8,874 bases of DNA from a virus. Taxonomy: Duplodnaviria > Heunggongvirae > Uroviricota > Caudoviricetes. The DNA lies in the IMG/VR virus record IMGVR_UViG_2667527592_000001; one strand, given 5' to 3'. A program made the translations under genes and the position numbers. Below the pieces are notes generated by a model. The model had not been told where the DNA came from and did no database searches. It worked only from the letters and a program-made list of their open reading frames with translations. This document shows positions 1-8,846 of this stretch, in pieces; positions within the stretch are counted from its first letter, which is position 1; every line of letters begins with the position of its first letter.

Positions 1-503
1 TTGAACTGAATGGCAAAGGCACCAGTACGCGCCCCACGCTGACGGTTTCTAACCTGTACGGTATGGTCACCGGGATGGCGGAAGATCTGCAGAGTCTGGT
101 CGGCGGAACGGTGGTCCGGCGTAAGGTCTACGCCCGTTTTCTGGATACGGTGAACTTCGTCAACGGAAACCGTGACGCCGATCCGGAGCAGGAGGTGATC
201 AGCCGCTGGCGCATCGAGCAGTGCAGCGAACTGAGCGCAGTCAGTGCCTCTTTTGTACTGTCCACGCCGACGGAAACGGATGGCGCTGTTTTTCCGGGAC
301 GTATCATGCTGGCCAACACCTGCACCTGGACCTATCGCGGTGATGAGTGCGGTTATCACGGTCCGGCGGTCGCGGATGAATATGACCAGCCGACGTCCGA
401 TATCACGAAGGATAAATGCAGCAAATGCCTGAGCGGCTGTAAGTTTCGCAATAACGTCGGCAACTTTGGCGGCTTCCTTTCCATTAACAAACTTTCGCAG
501 TGA
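1..503 (+). CDS. L: Tail tip protein L, 5'-truncated by the window edge (C-terminal ~167 codons present)
   Basis: Open frame runs from the window start (first full codon 3-5, translating ELNGKGTSTRPTLTVSNLYGMVTGMAED...) to TGA at 501-503. The Met at 63 in the ORF track is internal, not the start. Translation matches the C-terminal part of lambda gpL as I recall it, including the Cys-rich tail CTWTYRGDECGY...CSKCLSGC. Sits immediately upstream of K as in lambda. Confidence 0.9.
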   Translation, partial: ELNGKGTSTRPTLTVSNLYGMVTGMAEDLQSLVGGTVVRRKVYARFLDTVNFVNGNRDADPEQEVISRWRIEQCSELSAVSASFVLSTPTETDGAVFPGRIMLANTCTWTYRGDECGYHGPAVADEYDQPTSDITKDKCSKCLSGCKFRNNVGNFGGFLSINKLSQ

Positions 504-1252
504 ATCCCATGACAGAGACAGAATCAGCGATTCTGGCGCACGCCCGGCGATGTGCGCCAGCGGAGTCGTGCGGCTTCGTGGTGAGAGCGCCGGAGGGGGA
601 AAGATATTTTCCCTGCGTGAATATTTCCGGTGAGCCGGAGGATTATTTCCGGATGGCTCCGGAGGACTGGCTGCAGGCAGAGATGCAGGGTGAGATTGTG
701 GCGCTGGTTCACAGCCACCCCGGTGGTCTGCCCTGGCTGAGTGAGGCTGACCGGCGGTTGCAGGTGCAGAGTGATTTGCCGTGGTGGCTGGTCTGCCGGG
801 GAGTGATTCATAAGTTCCGCTGTGTGCCGCATCTCACCGGGCGGCGCTTTGAGCACGGGGTGACGGACTGTTACACGCTGTTCCGGGATGCTTATCATCT
901 GGCGGGGATTGAGATGCCGGATTTTCATCGCGGGGATGACTGGTGGCGTCACGGTCAGAATCTCTATCTTGACAATATGGAGGCGACTGGTTTTTACCGT
1001 GTCGCACTGACAGAGGCGCAGCCTGGCGACGTGCTGCTGTGCTGCTTTGGTTCATCGGTGCCGAATCATGCCGCCATTTACTGTGGTGACGGCGAGCTGC
1101 TGCACCATATTCCTGAACAACTGAGTAAACGAGAGAGGTATACCGACAAATGGCAGCGACGCACACACTCCCTCTGGCGTCACCGGGCATGGCGCGCATC
1201 TGCCTTTACGGGGATTTACAACGATTTGGCCGCCGCATCGACCTTCGTGTGA
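500..1252 (+). CDS. K: Tail tip assembly protein K, with an N-terminal MPN/JAMM-like motif and a C-terminal NlpC/P60-like Cys/His region
   Basis: 250-codon ORF starting at GTG 500, overlapping the L stop (gTGAat); alternative starts are ATG 509 and ATG 653, the latter giving a 199-aa product like the classical lambda K annotation. HSHPGGLPWLSEAD (nt 710-751) fits the JAMM pattern H-x-H-x7-S-x2-D. Cys124 in TDCYTLF (nt 869-871) and His in PNHAAIY fit an NlpC/P60 papain-like catalytic pair. Overall sequence recognised as lambda gpK. Confidence 0.9.
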   Translation: MNPMTETESAILAHARRCAPAESCGFVVRAPEGERYFPCVNISGEPEDYFRMAPEDWLQAEMQGEIVALVHSHPGGLPWLSEADRRLQVQSDLPWWLVCRGVIHKFRCVPHLTGRRFEHGVTDCYTLFRDAYHLAGIEMPDFHRGDDWWRHGQNLYLDNMEATGFYRVALTEAQPGDVLLCCFGSSVPNHAAIYCGDGELLHHIPEQLSKRERYTDKWQRRTHSLWRHRAWRASAFTGIYNDLAAASTFV

Positions 1253-1821
1253 AAACGGGGGCTGAAGCCATCCGGGCGCTGGCCACACAGCTCCCTGCGT
1301 TTCGTCAGAAACTGAGCGACGGCTGGTATCAGGTGCGTATTGCCGGACAGGATGTCAGCACGTCCGGATTAACGGCGCAGTTACATGAGGCTCTGCCTGA
1401 CGGCGCTGTGATTCATATTGTTCCCAGAGTCGCCGGGGCCAAGTCAGGTGGTGTATTCCAGATTGTCCTGGGAGCAGCCGCCATTGCCGGATCATTCTTT
1501 ACCGCCGGAGCCACCCTTGCAGCATGGGGGGCTGCCATTGGTGCCGGTGGTATGACCGGCATTCTGTTTTCTCTCGGTGCCAGTATGGTGCTCGGCGGTG
1601 TGGCTCAGATGCTGGCACCGAAAGCCAGGACGCCCACGGCAGCCAGTACAGATAACGGCAAACAGAACACGTATTTCTCGTCACTGGATAACATGGTTGC
1701 CCAGGGTAATGTTCTGCCTGTTCTGTACGGGGAAATGCGCGTGGGGTCACGTGTGGTTTCTCAGGAGATCAGCACGGCAGACGAAGGGGACGGTGGTCAG
1801 GTTGTGGTGATTGGTCGCTGA
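1150..1821 (+). CDS. I: Tail tip assembly protein I
   Basis: 223-codon ORF, the same length as lambda gpI, starting at ATG 1150 with a GAGAGAGG Shine-Dalgarno-like run at 1131-1138. Overlaps the K 3' end by 103 nt in a different frame, as I recall for lambda K/I. Contains a Gly/Ala-rich hydrophobic stretch (GGVFQIVLGAAAIAGSFFTAGATLAAWGAAIGAGGMTGILFSLGASMVLGGVAQMLAP). Stop TGA at 1819-1821. Confidence 0.9.
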   Translation: MAATHTLPLASPGMARICLYGDLQRFGRRIDLRVKTGAEAIRALATQLPAFRQKLSDGWYQVRIAGQDVSTSGLTAQLHEALPDGAVIHIVPRVAGAKSGGVFQIVLGAAAIAGSFFTAGATLAAWGAAIGAGGMTGILFSLGASMVLGGVAQMLAPKARTPTAASTDNGKQNTYFSSLDNMVAQGNVLPVLYGEMRVGSRVVSQEISTADEGDGGQVVVIGR

Positions 1822-1839
1822 TGCAAAATGTTTTATGTG

Positions 1840-1867
1840 AAACCGCCTGCGGGCGGTTTTGTCGTTT
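1840..1867 (+). terminator. Terminator-like hairpin in the I-J intergenic region (8-bp GC-rich stem, 4-nt loop, U-rich tail)
   Basis: AAACCGCC (1840-1847) pairs with GGCGGTTT (1852-1859) around loop TGCG, followed by TGTCGTTT. Lies within the late operon, so it may act as a partial terminator, attenuator or RNA-stabilising structure. Confidence 0.5.
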
Positions 1868-1881
1868 ATGGAGCATGAGGA

Positions 1882-4800
1882 ATGGGTAAAGGCAGCAGTA
1901 AGGGGCATACCCCGCGCGAAGCGAAGGACAACCTGAAGTCCACGCAGCTGCTGAGTGTGATCGATGCCATCAGCGAAGGGCCGGTTGAAGGTCCGGTGGA
2001 TGGATTAAAAAGCGTGCTGCTGAACAGTACGCCGGTGCTGGACAGTGAGGGGAATACCAATATATCCGGCGTCACGGTGGTGTTCCGGGCAGGTGAGCAG
2101 GAGCAGACTCCGCCGGAGGGATTTGAATCCTCCGGCTCCGAGACGGTGCTGGGTACGGAAGTGAAATATGACACGCCGATCACCCGGACCATCACGTCGG
2201 CAAACATCGACCGACTGCGCCTGACCTTCGGTGTGCAGGCACTGGTGGAAACCACCTCAAAGGGGGACCGGAATCCGTCGGAAGTCCGCCTGCTGGTTCA
2301 GATACAGCGTAATGGTGGCTGGGTGACGGAAAAAGACATCACCATTAAGGGCAAAACCACCTCGCAGTATCTGGCCTCGGTGGTGGTGGATAACCTGCCG
2401 CCGCGCCCGTTTAATATCCGGATGCGCAGAATGACGCCGGACAGCACCACAGACCAGCTGCAGAACAAAACGCTCTGGTCGTCATACACCGAAATCATCG
2501 ATGTGAAACAGTGCTACCCGAACACGGCACTGGTCGGCGTGCAGGTGGATTCGGAACAGTTCGGCAGCCAGCAGGTGAGCCGTAATTATCATCTTCGCGG
2601 GCGTATTCTGCAGGTGCCGTCGAACTATAACCCGCAGACGCGGCAATACAGCGGTATCTGGGACGGAACGTTTAAACCGGCATACAGCAACAACATGGCC
2701 TGGTGTCTGTGGGATATGCTGACCCACCCGCGCTACGGCATGGGGAAACGTCTTGGTGCGGCAGATGTGGATAAATGGGCGCTGTATGTCATCGGCCAGA
2801 ATTGCGACCAGTCAGTGCCGGACGGCTCTGGCGGCACGGAGCCGCGCATCACCTGTAATGCCTACCTGACCACACAGCGCAAGGCGTGGGATGTGCTCAG
2901 CGATTTCTGCTCGGCGATGCGCTGTATGCCGGTATGGAACGGGCAGACGCTGACGTTCGTGCAGGACCGACCGTCGGATAAGGTGTGGACCTATAACCGC
3001 AGTAATGTGGTGATGCCGGATGATGGCGCGCCGTTCCGCTACAGCTTCAGCGCCCTCAAGGACCGCCATAATGCCGTTGAGGTGAACTGGATTGACCCGG
3101 ATAACGGCTGGGAGACGGCGACAGAGCTTGTGGAGGACACGCAGGCCATTCTCCGTTACGGTCGTAACGTCACGAAGATGGATGCCTTTGGCTGTACCAG
3201 CCGGGGGCAGGCACACCGCGCCGGGCTGTGGCTGATTAAAACGGAGCTGCTGGAGACGCAGACCGTGGATTTCAGCGTGGGTGCCGAAGGGCTTCGCCAT
3301 GTGCCGGGTGATGTTATTGAAATCTGCGATGATGACTATGCGGGGATCAGCATCGGCGGGCGCGTGCTGGCGGTGAACAGCCAGACCCGGACGCTGACGC
3401 TCGACCGTGAAATCACGCTGCCATCCTCCGGTACCACGCTGATAAGCCTGGTTGACGGAAGTGGCAATCCGGTCAGCGTGGAGGTCCAGTCCGTCACCGA
3501 CGGCGTGAAGGTAAAAGTGAGCCGTGTTCCTGACGGCGTTGCCGGATACAGCGTATGGGGGCTGAAGTTGCCGACGTTGCGCCAGCGCCTGTTCCGCTGC
3601 GTGAGTATCCGTGAGAACGACGACGGCACGTATGCCATCACCGCCGTGCAGCATGTACCCGAAAAAGAAGCCATCGTGGATAACGGGGCGCACTTTGACG
3701 GCGACCTGAGCGGCACGGTGAATGGCGTCACACCGCCCGCGGTGCAGCACCTGACTGCCGAAGTCACCGCAGACAGCGGGGAATATCAGGTGCTGGCGCG
3801 CTGGGACACGCCGAAGGTGGTGAAGGGGGTGAGCTTCCTGCTTCGCCTGACCGTGGCAGCGGACGATGGCAGTGAGCGGCTGGTCAGTACGGCCAGGACG
3901 ACGGAAACCACATACCGCTTCACGCAACTGGCGCTGGGGAACTACAGGCTGACTGTCCGGGCGGTAAATGCGTGGGGACAGCAGGGCGATCCGGCATCGG
4001 TATCGTTCCGGATTGCCGCACCGGCAGCGCCGTCTCGGATTGAGCTGACACCGGGCTATTTTCAGATAACTGCCACGCCACATCTTGCGGTTTATGACCC
4101 GACGGTACAATTTGAGTTCTGGTTCTCGGAAACGCGGATTACCGATATCAGGCAGGTTGAAACCACAGCCCGCTACCTTGGCACGGGGCTGTACTGGATA
4201 GCCGCCAGTATCAATATCAAACCGGGCCATGATTATTACTTTTATATCCGCAGTGTGAACACCGTTGGCAAATCGGCATTCGTGGAGGCCGTCGGTCGGG
4301 CGAGCGATGATGCGGAAGGTTACCTGGATTTTTTCAAAGGCAAGATAACCGAATCCCATCTTGGTAAAGAGCTGCTGGAAAAAGTCGACCTGACGGAGGA
4401 TAACGCCAGCAAACTGGAGCAGTTTTCGAAAGAGTGGAAGGATGCTAACGATAAGTGGAATGCCATGTGGGGCGTCAAAATTGAGCAGACCAAAGACGGC
4501 AAACATTATGTCGCGGGTATTGGCCTCAGCATGGAGGACACGGAGGAAGGCAAACTGAGCCAGTTTCTGGTTGCCGCCAATCGTATCGCGTTTATTGACC
4601 CGGCAAACGGGAATGAAACGCCGATGTTTGTGGCGCAGGGCAACCAGATATTCATGAACGACGTGTTCCTGAAGCGCCTGACGGCCCCCACCATTACCAG
4701 CGGTGGAAATCCACCGGCATTTTCCCTGACACCGGACGGAAAGCTGACTGCTAAAAATGCGGATATCAGTGGCAGTGTGAATGCGAACTCCGGGACGCTC

Positions 4801-5277
4801 AACAACGTCACGATTAACGAGAACTGTCGGGTTCTGGGAAAACTGTCCGCGAACCAGATTGAAGGCGATCTCGTTAAAACAGTGGGCAAAGCTTTCCCCC
4901 GGGACTCCCGTGCACCGGAACGGTGGCCATCAGGGACCATTACCGTCAGGGTTTATGACGATCAGCCGTTTGACCGGCAGATTGTTATTCCGGCGGTGGC
5001 ATTCAGCGGCGCTAAACATGAGAGAGAGCATACTGATATTTACTCCTCATGCCGTCTGATAGTGCGGAAAAACGGTGCTGAAATTTATAACCGTACCGCG
5101 CTGGATAATACGCTGATTTACAGTGGCGTTATTGATATGCCTGCCGGTCACGGTCACATGACGCTGGAGTTTTCGGTGTCAGCATGGCTGGTAAATGACT
5201 GGTATCCCACAGCAAGTATCAGCGATTTGCTGGTTGTGGTGATGAAGAAAGCCACCGCAGGCATCAGTATCAGCTGA
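1882..5277 (+). CDS. J: Tail tip host specificity protein J (central tail fibre)
   Basis: 1131-codon ORF (lambda gpJ is 1132 aa). N-terminus [34 protein letters not shown]... and long internal stretches match lambda J as I recall it. GGAG at 1871-1874 lies 7 nt upstream of ATG 1882. Stop TGA at 5275-5277. The last ~150 residues are the receptor-binding region. Confidence 0.97.
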
Positions 5278-5296
5278 ATTTTATAACCCATATACG

Positions 5297-5323
5297 GGCG
5301 CCAGAAATGGCGCCTTTTTTATT
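5297..5323 (+). terminator. Rho-independent terminator between J and lom
   Basis: GGCGCCA (5297-5303) pairs with TGGCGCC (5308-5314) around loop GAAA, followed by TTTTTTATT (5315-5323). Canonical intrinsic terminator geometry, 20 nt after the J stop. Confidence 0.75.
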
Positions 5324-5344
5324 GCAGAAAAGCGAGAGGTAATT

Positions 5345-5416
5345 ATGCGTAAAGTTTGTGCAACCATTTTGTCCGCAGCCATCTGTCTGTCCGTATCCGG
5401 TGCGCCTGCATGGGCG
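5345..5416 (+). other. Predicted Sec signal peptide of Lom (24 aa)
   Basis: Positively charged N-terminus (MRK), hydrophobic core (ATILSAAICLSV), and A-W-A before the predicted mature N-terminus SEHQ... Confidence 0.7.
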
Positions 5417-5944
5417 TCTGAACATCAGTCCACACTGAGCGCAGGGTATCTTCATGCCCGTACGAACGCTCCCGGCAGCGATAATCTGAACGGGATTAAC
5501 GTGAAATACCGTTATGAGTTTACGGACACGCTGGGGCTGATTACGTCCTTCAGTTATGCCAATGCTGAGGATGAGCAAAAAACGCACTACAGCGATACCC
5601 GCTGGCATGAAGATTCCGTGCGTAACCGCTGGTTCAGCGTGATGGCGGGGCCGTCTGTACGCGTGAATGAATGGTTCAGCGCGTATGCGATGGCGGGTGT
5701 GGCTTACAGCCGTGTGTCGACTTTCTCCGGGGATTATCTCCGCGTAACTGACAACAAGGGGAAAACGCACGATGTGCTGACCGGAAGTGATGACGGTCGC
5801 CACAGCAACACGTCTCTGGCGTGGGGAGCTGGCGTGCAGTTTAACCCGACCGAATCCGTGGCCGTTGATGTCGCTTATGAAGGCTCCGGCAGCGGTGACT
5901 GGCGTACCAACAGTTTCATCGTGGGTGTCGGTTATAAATTCTGA
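5345..5944 (+). CDS. lom: Lom-like outer membrane beta-barrel protein (Ail/Lom/PagC family)
   Basis: 199-codon ORF with GAGAGG Shine-Dalgarno at 5334-5339, 5 nt before ATG 5345. N-terminal signal peptide MRKVCATILSAAICLSVSGAPAWA with an AWA-S cleavage-type site. Conserved Lom motifs as I recall them: GINVKYRYE, SVMAGP, SAYAMAGVA and the C-terminal AYEGSGSGDWRTNSFIVGVGYKF ending in aromatic F. Same position as lom in lambda (between J and stf). Confidence 0.93.
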   Translation: MRKVCATILSAAICLSVSGAPAWASEHQSTLSAGYLHARTNAPGSDNLNGINVKYRYEFTDTLGLITSFSYANAEDEQKTHYSDTRWHEDSVRNRWFSVMAGPSVRVNEWFSAYAMAGVAYSRVSTFSGDYLRVTDNKGKTHDVLTGSDDGRHSNTSLAWGAGVQFNPTESVAVDVAYEGSGSGDWRTNSFIVGVGYKF

Positions 5945-5970
5945 TTAGCCAGGTAACACAGTGTTATGAC

Positions 5971-5998
5971 AGCCCGCCGGTTCAGGCGGGCTTTTTTG
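5971..5998 (+). terminator. Rho-independent terminator downstream of lom
   Basis: AGCCCGCC (5971-5978) pairs with GGCGGGCT (5985-5992) around loop GGTTCA, followed by a T-run (5992-5997). Begins 27 nt after the lom stop and ends ~10 nt before the stf start. Confidence 0.75.
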
Positions 5999-6008
5999 TG
6001 GGGGGAAT

Positions 6009-8846
6009 ATGGCAGTACGGATTTCAGGTGTACTGAAAGATGGCGCAGGTAAGCCGATACAAAACTGCACCATTCAGCTAAAGGCCAGGCGCAACAGCAC
6101 CACGGTGGTGGTGAACACAGTGGCCTCAGAAAACCCGGATGAAGCCGGGCGTTACACAATGGACGTCGAGTATGGTCAGTACAGCGTCAGTCTGTTGGTG
6201 GAGGGATTCCCGCCGTCACACGCCGGGATTATCACCGTATATGAGGACTCAAAGCCGGGCACACTGAATGATTTCCTCGGTGCCATGACGGAGGATGATG
6301 TCCGGCCAGAGGCACTGCGCCGTTTTGAACTGATGGTGGAAGAGGTGGCGCGTAACGCGTCCGCAGTGACACAGAACACGGCAGCCGCGAAGAAGTCAGT
6401 CAGCGATGCCAGCACATCAGCCCGTGAGGCGGCAACCCATGCGACTGATGCTGCAGGCTCAGCACGCGCAGCCAGCACGTCAGCCGGACAGGCCGCGACG
6501 TCGGCTCAGTCAGCGTCTTCCAGCGCAGTAACGGCATCAACAAAGGCCACTGAAGCATCAAAAAGTGCTGCCGCTGCAGAGTCCTCAAAAAGCGCGGCGG
6601 CTACCAGTGCCGGTGCGGCGAAAACGTCAGAAACGAATGCGGCAGCGTCACAACAATCAGCAGCCACTTCTGCATCCACCGCGACCACGAAAGCGTCAGA
6701 AGCTGCCTCCTCAGCCCGGGATGCGTCGGCTTCAAAAGAGGCAGCGAAATCATCAGAAACGAACGCATCATCAAGCGCCAGTAGTGCCGCTTCCTCGGCA
6801 ACGGCGGCAGGAAATTCCGCGAAGGCGGCAAAAACGTCCGAGACAAACGCTAGGTCTTCTGAGACGGCAGCGGGACAGAGCGCCTCAGCTGCGGCAGGCT
6901 CAAAAACAGCGGCTGCATCATCTGCCAGCGCCGCGTCAACAAGTGCCGGGCAGGCCTCAGCCAGTGCCACCGCTGCCGGAAAGTCGGCAGAAAGTGCCGC
7001 ATCGTCTGCTTCAACAGCCACAACGAAGGCTGGCGAAGCCACTGAACAGGCCAGTGCAGCAGCGAGGTCTGCTTCCGCAGCGAAGACATCCGAAACGAAC
7101 GCGAAAGCGTCGGAAACCAGCGCAGAATCCTCAAAAACGGCTGCCGCATCGTCAGCCAGTTCGGCGGCGTCATCGGCATCATCGGCGTCTGCTTCAAAAG
7201 ATGAGGCGACCAGACAGGCGTCAGCAGCGAAGAGCAGCGCCACGACGGCATCCACGAAGGCGACAGAGGCTGCTGGCAGTGCGACGGCTGCATCTCAGAG
7301 CAAAGCTGCTGCTGAATCCGCGGCAACGCGTGCCGAAACAGCGGCAAAACGGGCAGAGGATATTGCTGATGCCGTATCTCTGGAAGATGCGAGCACGACG
7401 AAAAAAGGGGTGGTTCAGCTTAGTAGTGCAACCAACAGCACGTCTGAAACACTGGCTGCGACACCGAAAGCGGTTAAGGCGGTAATGGATGAAACAAATA
7501 AGAAAGCCCCATTAAACAGCCCGACGCTGACCGGAACGCCAACAACACCAACTGCGCCAAAGGGTACTAATAATACTCAGATCGCAAGCACGGCTTATGT
7601 GATGGCCGCTATTGCCGCACTTGTAGATTCGTCACCTGATGCACTGAACACGCTGAACGAGCTGGCTGCGGCGCTGGGCAACGACCCGAATTTTGCGACC
7701 ACCATGACTAACGCGCTTGCGGGTAAGCAACCGAAAGATGCCACCCTGACGGCGCTGGCCGGGCTTGCTACTGCGGCAGACAGGTTTCCGTATTTTACGG
7801 GGAATGATGTCGCCAGCCTGGCAACCCTGACAAAAGTCGGGCGGGATATTCTTGCGAAATCGACCATTGCCGCCGTTATCGAATACCTCGGTTTACAGGA
7901 AACGGTAAATCAGGCTTCTGGCGCATTACAGAAAAACCAGAACGGCGCAGATATTCCAGGAAAAGATACCTTCACCAAAAATATTGGTGCCTGCCGCGCA
8001 TATAGCGCATGGCTGAATATTGGTGGCAATAGTCAGGTCTGGACAACCGCGCAATTTATTTCGTGGCTGGAGAGTCAGGGAGCATTTAACCATCCTTACT
8101 GGATGTGCAAAGGCTCATGGGCTTATGCAAACAATAAGGTCATTACAGATACAGGTTGCGGAAATATTTGTCTTGCAGGTGCTGTGGTGGAAGTTATTGG
8201 CACTCGCGGCGCAATGACCATACGCGTTACTACTCCGAGTACGTCCAGCGGCGGCGGAATCACTAACGCTCAATTCACTTATATTAATCATGGTGATGCT
8301 TATGCTCCTGGCTGGCGAAGAGACTACAATACGAAAAACCAGCAGCCTGCATTTGCTTTAGGGCAAACAGGAAGCAGGGTTGCAAATGATAAAGCTGTTG
8401 GCTGGAACTGGAATAGCGGCGTTTATGATGCAGATATCAGTGGTGCATCGACATTAATCCTCCACTTTAATATGAATGCGGGGAGTTGCCCTGCTGTACA
8501 GTTCCGCGTGAATTATAAGAACGGCGGTATTTTTTATCGTTCAGCGCGTGATGGTTATGGCTTTGAAGCTAACTGGTCAGAGTTTTACACCACAACCCGC
8601 AAACCCTCTGCGGGAGATGTTGGTGCATATACGCAGGCAGAATGTAACTCAAGGTTTATTACAGGTATTCGCCTTGGCGGTCTGTCATCTGTTCAGACAT
8701 GGAATGGTCCCGGCTGGTCTGACAGGTCAGGTTATGTCGTTACGGGTTCAGTTAACGGAAACCGTGATGAATTAATTGATACAACTCAGGCAAGGCCAAT
8801 TCAGTATTGCATTAATGGAACGTGGTATAACGCGGGGAGTATTTAA
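6009..8846 (+). CDS. stf: Side tail fibre protein (Stf-like): lambda-Stf-like N-terminus, long Ala/Ser/Thr-rich repeat shaft, conserved fibre motif, distinct C-terminal tip
   Basis: 945-codon uninterrupted ORF; ATG 6009 is preceded by a G-run at 5997-6005. N-terminus MAVRISGVLKDGAGKPIQNCTIQLKARRNSTTVVVNTV...DEAGRYTMDVEYGQYSV matches the lambda Stf N-terminus as I recall it. KGVVQLSSATNSTSETLAATPKAVKAVMDETNKKAPL (nt ~7404-7508) is a motif shared by several tail-fibre proteins. Stop TAA at 8844-8846. Confidence 0.93.
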   Translation: MAVRISGVLKDGAGKPIQNCTIQLKARRNSTTVVVNTVASENPDEAGRYTMDVEYGQYSVSLLVEGFPPSHAGIITVYEDSKPGTLNDFLGAMTEDDVRPEALRRFELMVEEVARNASAVTQNTAAAKKSVSDASTSAREAATHATDAAGSARAASTSAGQAATSAQSASSSAVTASTKATEASKSAAAAESSKSAAATSAGAAKTSETNAAASQQSAATSASTATTKASEAASSARDASASKEAAKSSETNASSSASSAASSATAAGNSAKAAKTSETNARSSETAAGQSASAAAGSKTAAASSASAASTSAGQASASATAAGKSAESAASSASTATTKAGEATEQASAAARSASAAKTSETNAKASETSAESSKTAAASSASSAASSASSASASKDEATRQASAAKSSATTASTKATEAAGSATAASQSKAAAESAATRAETAAKRAEDIADAVSLEDASTTKKGVVQLSSATNSTSETLAATPKAVKAVMDETNKKAPLNSPTLTGTPTTPTAPKGTNNTQIASTAYVMAAIAALVDSSPDALNTLNELAAALGNDPNFATTMTNALAGKQPKDATLTALAGLATAADRFPYFTGNDVASLATLTKVGRDILAKSTIAAVIEYLGLQETVNQASGALQKNQNGADIPGKDTFTKNIGACRAYSAWLNIGGNSQVWTTAQFISWLESQGAFNHPYWMCKGSWAYANNKVITDTGCGNICLAGAVVEVIGTRGAMTIRVTTPSTSSGGGITNAQFTYINHGDAYAPGWRRDYNTKNQQPAFALGQTGSRVANDKAVGWNWNSGVYDADISGASTLILHFNMNAGSCPAVQFRVNYKNGGIFYRSARDGYGFEANWSEFYTTTRKPSAGDVGAYTQAECNSRFITGIRLGGLSSVQTWNGPGWSDRSGYVVTGSVNGNRDELIDTTQARPIQYCINGTWYNAGSI
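6340..7375 (+). repeat. Low-complexity, imperfectly repeated Ala/Ser/Thr-rich tract inside stf, including four copies of a ~24-27-nt unit encoding A-K-(T/S)-S-E-T-N-A
   Basis: Units begin at ~6618 (gcgaaaacgtcagaaacgaatgcggca), ~6744 (gcgaaatcatcagaaacgaacgcatca), ~6828 (gcaaaaacgtccgagacaaacgct) and ~7080 (gcgaagacatccgaaacgaacgcgaaa), all in the stf frame with synonymous and near-synonymous differences. Related units such as TSAGQA and KSAAA also recur. Confidence 0.85.

Follow-up and report, generated by a model that had tools for sequence, protein, structure and literature searches.

A lambda-like tail-tip module whose J protein carries a tip of the 1A2/VT1-Sakai type, a probable OmpC binder

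Genes of the tail-tip module

The stretch of DNA analysed here, referred to below as the window, is 8,874 nucleotides long and comes from the IMG/VR virus record IMGVR_UViG_2667527592_000001 (Caudoviricetes). Its open reading frames and their Pfam domains identified it as a lambdoid tail-tip module with the gene order L-K-I-J-lom-stf (Table 1). The window is colinear with lambda between 13.6 and 21.1 kb, and with many lambdoid phages; its DNA identity to lambda and to many of these phages is 92–95% over most of the length. When the phage records and the complete E. coli genomes were searched with the whole window, no match of at least 99% was found. The closest match among the complete E. coli genomes was NZ_CP148365 (95.3%), a separate record of 45.9 kb in an E. 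coli assembly, perhaps the genome of a lambdoid phage that is extrachromosomal or was assembled separately.

Table 1. Genes and other features of the window
Feature	Position	Strand	Basis or remark
L, 3′ end	to 503		ORF list; frame open to the stop from near the left end of the window
K	500–1252	+	250 aa ORF from a GTG overlapping the L stop; Pfam Prok-JAB and NlpC/P60
I	1150–1821		Intact ORF
J, tip attachment/central tail fibre protein	1882–5277	+	1131 aa; intact ORF including the stop
Lambda-like J body (hub, FNIII domains, helical shaft, most of the beta-prism fibre)	1882–4801	+	Identity to lambda
Putative recombination joint	4777–4801	+	Identical in lambda and in J genes of the VT1-Sakai/PhiR55_1 type
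Receptor-binding tip (J residues 981–1131), 1A2/VT1-Sakai/PhiR55_1 type; putative OmpC binder	4822–5274	+	Tip identities, Pfam, AF2/Foldseek
Terminator-like hairpin (5296–5315) plus T-run, between J and lom	5296–5325	+	Consensus scan
lom, Ail/Lom outer-membrane beta-barrel, non-lambda allele	5345–5944	+	Pfam Ail_Lom, E = 4e-127
Terminator-like GC-rich hairpin with T-run after lom	5971–5992	+	Consensus scan
stf, side tail fibre of 945 aa, the tail tip's second organelle for adsorption	6009–8846	+	Pfam phage_tail_N, residues 1–134

J is colinear with lambda J from end to end (1131 vs 1132 aa, with a single gap of one residue). Six J-specific Pfam domains were found in it above their cut-offs: FNIII-A_GpJ, Phage-tail_3, Ig_J, Ig_J_second, Phage_Tail_Tip, and Ig_GpJ_C. 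Taken with the gene order, these results identify the protein as a lambda-type tip attachment protein J. The ORF list also contained an antisense frame of 564 aa inside J (2812–4506, minus strand) and long frame-shifted and antisense frames over the Ala/Ser-rich part of stf (6300–7450). No support was found for any of these as genes.

The J frame is complete, K, I, lom and stf are intact, L stays open to its stop, and every gene scanned carries the Pfam domains expected of it. Such a state of preservation makes it extremely unlikely that J lies in a decaying prophage and that its tip is without current function. That reading could draw on the best whole-window match, which reaches only 95.3%, and on the J of VT1-Sakai, a close relative at the tip (see below), which is annotated as truncated by mutation.

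The Pfam domains of K were located at residues 7–101 (Prok-JAB) and, behind it, 114–227 (NlpC/P60). In NC_001416, lambda K is given a length of 199 aa, which would cut into the JAB domain. The true start of K may lie upstream of the classical annotation.

The stf gene is related to lambda stf with 77–85% DNA identity over 5817–6916 and 7222–7891, and past about nt 7891 there is no similarity to lambda Stf. The last 318 aa of the protein (7890–8843, plus strand) match gpS of phage P7 (the Sv end, from the invertible C-segment) with 98.1% identity and the tail fibre of Shigella phage SfMu with 95.6%. The distal identities indicate a side fibre with a P1/P7/Mu-like tip on a lambda-type base. Window Stf also contains a long Ala/Ser/Thr-rich stretch, in which Tandem Repeats Finder detected no array. 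The protein has 945 aa, against 774 aa for lambda Stf when its two annotated pieces are joined.

Two terminator-like sites were found in the region against 1.4 expected from shuffled sequences, a difference that is weak evidence when taken alone. It may be noted that, in phage 21, a terminator is annotated at the equivalent place behind J. Since the two hairpins bracket lom, it is possible that this gene forms a separate transcription unit.

J body, J tip and the recombination joint

J of the window was aligned with J of lambda (NC_001416). Over residues 1–973 there were 28 mismatches (about 97% identity), whereas the last 158 aligned residues, from 974 to the end, contained 89 mismatches (about 43% identity). 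The contrast between body and tip was highly significant (Fisher p = 8e-63). In windows of 50 residues, identity to lambda J stayed at 88–100% up to residue 950, and then fell to 76%, 48%, 40%, and 34%. The same pattern of body and tip was obtained when the J sequence of the solved lambda structures (8iyk/8xcj) was matched directly.

The DNA gave a similar picture. By blastn, the window matched lambda with 94.8% identity over positions 1–4827, and the next match began at 5817; between 4828 and 5816, the sole match to lambda DNA was one of 58 nt (86%) inside lom (5484–5541). A maximum chi-square scan of the J gene placed the breakpoint at nt 4802, where the mismatch rate rises from 4.5% on the left to 45.1% on the right. 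None of 200 permutations reached this statistic.

These comparisons bear on a reading of the same DNA that had been made from the sequence only. According to it, J follows lambda gpJ up to about residue 980, the final 150 or so residues seem to differ at many positions, and such a pattern is the usual mark of a mosaic joint. This account of lambda J was correct in substance, as the solved lambda J sequence and the alignments show the same pattern: the body is conserved through residue 973, the last 150 residues are far from near-identity with lambda J (43%), and in the pairwise alignment with windowed identity that the sequence-only reading had proposed, identity falls beyond residue 950. In one detail, it needed correction. 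The region had been started at 4820, which is two bases off frame, codon 981 beginning at 4822. The 149 residues quoted there (RVLGKL...AGISIS) are J residues 983–1131, encoded by nt 4828–5274 and followed by the stop codon at 5275–5277.

Two simpler descriptions of the C-terminus were considered and rejected. That it is lambda's own is ruled out by the match to lambda J in the PDB and by the NC_001416 alignment. That it differs from lambda J by a handful of host-range point mutations was rejected because 57% of the positions differ over the whole domain, and because the divergence reaches into lom.

To place the joint, the window was aligned with lambda, VT1-Sakai, PhiR55_1, and h434. Diagnostic bases were of the lambda type up to about 4776 and of the VT1-Sakai/PhiR55_1 type from 4802. 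Over about 4777–4801, which codes for the end of the beta-prism fibre, all the aligned sequences were identical. An identical stretch flanked by bases of two types is the pattern expected of homologous recombination within a short conserved stretch. It is clear from the alignments that the J gene is a natural recombinant of a lambda-type body and, as described below, a 1A2-type tip, and its two modules would have been joined by such an exchange at the end of the fibre. In the chimeras of Brödel et al., the fusion point lies at residue 964 of lambda gpJ, within this conserved region of the fibre (Nature 2024, PMC11338833).

The block that lacks similarity to lambda extends from about 4802 to 5816 (~1 kb), and includes the J tip, the J stop codon, the terminator-like hairpin and most of lom. 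At the amino acid level, Lom of the window is 44% identical to lambda Lom, but 84–89% identical to the Lom proteins of h434, VT1-Sakai, and PhiR55_1, the value for h434 being 88.9%. As the J tip and most of lom lie in one non-lambda block, the J tip and the lom allele may travel together.

The tip allele, its fold and its distribution

To ascertain which allele the tip represents, J residues 981–1131 (151 aa) were compared with the tips of characterized and related phages. The tip of PhiR55_1 was 99.3% identical (150/151) and that of VT1-Sakai 98.0% identical (148/151), followed by PhiR40_1 (88.7%), phage 21 (68%), BP-4795 (64.6%), A8 (62.6%), h434 (44.6%), and lambda (43%). PhiR55_1 is a viable phage, and its record names E. 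coli C as the host. Three known alleles did not fit. The LamB-binding tip of lambda and the OmpC-binding tip of phage 434 (carried by lambda h434) would each be expected to be near-identical to the window tip; neither was, at 43% and 44.6%, respectively, and the 434-type tip also differed by several indels. Members of an A8/phage 21-type allele would be expected to share at least about 80% identity together with two indels, namely an NFNSNN-like insertion of 6 residues behind HE(N) and a first variable loop shortened by 4 residues. Both indels are present in the A8 and phage 21 tips but absent from the window, and identity to these tips was 62.6–68%. In contrast, near-identity over the whole tip and without indels was found for the 1A2/VT1-Sakai type. 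By sequence, the window tip is hence assigned to this allele.

The assignment to 1A2 was made from the gpJ 1A2 gene sequence printed in the supplement of Brödel et al. (Nature 2024, PMC11338833). An exact-string search of that supplement for the DNA and the protein of the window tip returned no match, because the printed 1A2 tail is recoded and the text was damaged by PDF extraction. The tail was instead read by a frameshift-tolerant alignment of protein to DNA. Of 170 readable positions, 164 agreed with the VT1-Sakai tip, and 8 more were masked as frameshifts. One of the mismatches (R/K) concerns residue 954 of J, in a part preceding the fusion where 1A2 has lambda sequence. The other five, among them an in-frame stop that is impossible, adjoin dropped bases and were read as errors of text extraction. 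At every readable, uncorrupted position, the 1A2 tip as printed reads as the VT1-Sakai tip.

The clean differences between the window and 1A2 were S965N, just upstream of the tip, and R1048K, D1106N, and S1129T within it (window residue first). R1048 and D1106 of the window are common to PhiR55_1. The gpJ 1A2 chimera resembles J of the window in having a lambda-type body fused near residue 964–974 to the same tip, with equal tip length and no indels. It differs in its origin: gpJ 1A2 is engineered and recoded, whereas J of the window has recombined naturally.

The tip was also examined for its domain and its fold. Pfam Ig_GpJ_C (PF12421) was detected at J residues 1001–1131 with 128.1 bits against a cut-off of 26.2 (E = 3e-37). 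A phmmer search with the last 251 residues of J gave end-to-end alignments with A8 gpJ (9wca, E = 2e-118) and with lambda J (8xcj/8iyk, E about 1e-97 to 4e-97). An AlphaFold2 model was made for a monomer of J residues 941–1131. Its mean pLDDT was 75, with block means mostly of 83–97 over J residues about 1001–1120; two parts were modelled with low confidence, the extreme C-terminus and the fibre, which folds only as a trimer. The top four Foldseek matches of the model were 9wca (closed A8 gpJ), 8xck (closed lambda fibre), 9wcb (A8 gpJ with EDL933 OmpC), and 8xcj (lambda gpJ with LamB), with E = 5e-20 to 3e-18 and TM 0.66–0.71. A8 gpJ, in which an OmpC-using tip sits on a lambda body, was the best match among solved structures in both sequence and structure. 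Structure prediction of the J C-terminus, which had been put forward as a check in the sequence-only reading, gave the fold of the solved lambda and A8 gpJ tips. By profile and by modelled fold, the tip is an Ig-like receptor-binding domain of the Ig_GpJ_C family.

The lambda tip shares with that of the window the Ig_GpJ_C domain, the fold, almost the same length and the terminal place on a trimeric fibre, and the motifs FPR, WPSG, PFDRQIV, NG, and DMPAG are conserved between them. It differs in its low sequence identity and in its receptor, LamB. Strands and loops alike have diverged from lambda, most of all the loops 1004–1017, 1049–1050, 1074–1076, and 1103–1115, where identities to lambda are (in increasing order) 0/2, 0/3, 4/14, and 7/14. 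Judged by the order of the strands rather than by superposition, these four loops probably correspond to the receptor-facing L1–L4 described for lambda.

Tips at least 95% identical to that of the window were present in 53 phage records, mostly Stx1/Stx2-converting and PPompW prophages of O157, and also 2G7b, JLK-2012, PhiR5_1, and PhiR55_1. The frequency of the allele in bacterial genomes was obtained by searching 5426 complete E. coli genomes with the 456 nt that code for the tip (4822–5277) and with the equivalent segment of lambda (5449–5904 of the lambda DNA used for the comparison). Tip-coding DNA of the window was found in 3398 of the 5426 genomes, with a median of 2 copies per positive genome. 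Several E. coli chromosomes carry it with 100% identity, and in 830 records it was matched with at least 99%. Tip-coding DNA of lambda was found in 98 of the 5426 genomes, all with at least 99% identity; the best five of these 98 were laboratory strains, three of them DE3 derivatives. Among E. coli prophages, it is the LamB-binding tip of lambda that is unusual, the window type being far commoner.

Receptor choice and its meaning

That an exchange of the J C-terminus can change the receptor is shown by lambda h434, the classical case, in which such a swap replaced LamB by OmpC. Brödel et al. (Nature 2024, PMC11338833) fused natural gpJ C-terminal parts to lambda gpJ, and the chimeras A8 and 1A2 were found to use OmpC in place of LamB (PMC11338833). 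The host used for screening these chimeras was a lamB deletion strain (PMC11338833). When 1A2 was assayed in a lamB/ompC double deletion supplied with OmpC variants, delivery was obtained for 20 of the 23, including G17, which is EDL933 OmpC (PMC11338833). Delivery failed (about 1–2%) for the variants G1, G2, and G40 (PMC11338833). The values for G1 agree with those given for MG1655 OmpC in the source file of Extended Data Fig. 2 (PMC11338833). In wild-type MG1655, where LamB is present, 1A2 gave only 5% delivery at MOI 50 (PMC11338833). K-12 OmpC is accepted by A8 but not by 1A2 (PMC11338833).

The sequence-only reading had proposed that the phage may use a receptor other than LamB. The 98% identity of the window tip to the VT1-Sakai tip, together with the LamB independence of 1A2, supports this proposal by homology and points to OmpC. 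It is likely, by analogy with 1A2, that the J tip of the window uses OmpC rather than LamB.

A second, diverged LamB-binding allele has to be weighed against this, and phage 21 offers the precedent. Its tip is 68% identical to that of the window, and natively it uses LamB; moreover, the fold is common to all these tips, and each of them docks on a trimeric porin. However, the window tip shares 98% identity with 1A2, far more than with phage 21, and the 1A2 tip functions in hosts deleted for lamB, barely works in wild-type K-12 that expresses LamB, and follows the OmpC variant supplied. We therefore consider it very unlikely that the window tip still uses LamB. A caution comes from phage 21 itself, to which a single J mutation adds the use of OmpC. 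Its tip is 81.6% identical to that of A8, and the pair illustrates that receptor choice in this family of tips can flip with very few substitutions.

It is also conceivable that R1048, D1106, and S1129 shift the specificity on what is still an OmpC-type scaffold, so that other OmpC variants would be recognized, or a porin other than OmpC (e.g., OmpF). Residue 1106 lies within the long variable loop 1103–1115, and residue 1048 borders a loop that bears indels between alleles, so that two of the three tip differences from 1A2 would be in or adjoin predicted receptor-facing loops. Single J mutations are known to alter porin use in lambda and in phage 21, and A8 and 1A2 differ in the OmpC variants that they accept. 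On the other hand, the three substitutions are conservative (R/K, D/N, S/T), and a tip with a single difference occurs in the viable phage PhiR55_1. The exact tip-coding DNA recurs unchanged in several E. coli chromosomes and nearly so in the 830 records mentioned above, which fits ordinary polymorphism within one functional class. A shift of this kind is hence judged improbable, and OmpC use of the 1A2 type is the preferred reading.

By analogy with 1A2, the trimeric tip would dock on trimeric OmpC, and not on LamB. It would be expected to accept most natural E. coli OmpC variants (e.g., that of EDL933), but not the OmpC of K-12. Triggered by binding to OmpC, the fibre and the tail tip would open, as has been described structurally for lambda and LamB; the complex of A8 gpJ with OmpC has also been solved. 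From the lambda structures, binding would spread the bottoms of the three tip domains, upon which the beta-prism would twist, the helical shaft flip and the tail tip open. The upstream parts of J that perform these movements are about 97% lambda-like in the window.

A literature search for a paper describing 9wca/9wcb found none, and the same was true of a search for receptor data on the PhiR phages. A receptor-prediction preprint of 2026 has GpJ of the Drexlerviridae type as its scope, and the window tip falls outside its coverage.

The combination of a lambda-like J body with a different tip is thus real, but the tip is a widespread and already known allele. It is not a rare receptor switch: in E. 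coli, lambda's own allele is much less frequent than this one. The finding is correct yet ordinary, because the tip belongs to a very common E. coli prophage allele and is near-identical to the characterized 1A2. Exchanges of the J C-terminus that change the receptor have been known since the lambda h434 hybrids, and the window provides an example of such modular tip exchange. The 1A2-type allele is annotated as J everywhere, has been characterized functionally, and has been exploited for DNA delivery targeted to OmpC.

There is a small chance that the window variant of the tip reads a spectrum of OmpC proteins other than that of 1A2, or a further porin as well. In that case, natural polymorphisms of one to three residues in the commonest J tip of E. 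coli prophages would tune the host range among lineages. For annotation, the allele itself is of use: where a J protein carries a 1A2-type tip, OmpC and not LamB may be predicted as the receptor, and the phage would probably not infect K-12 through its native OmpC.
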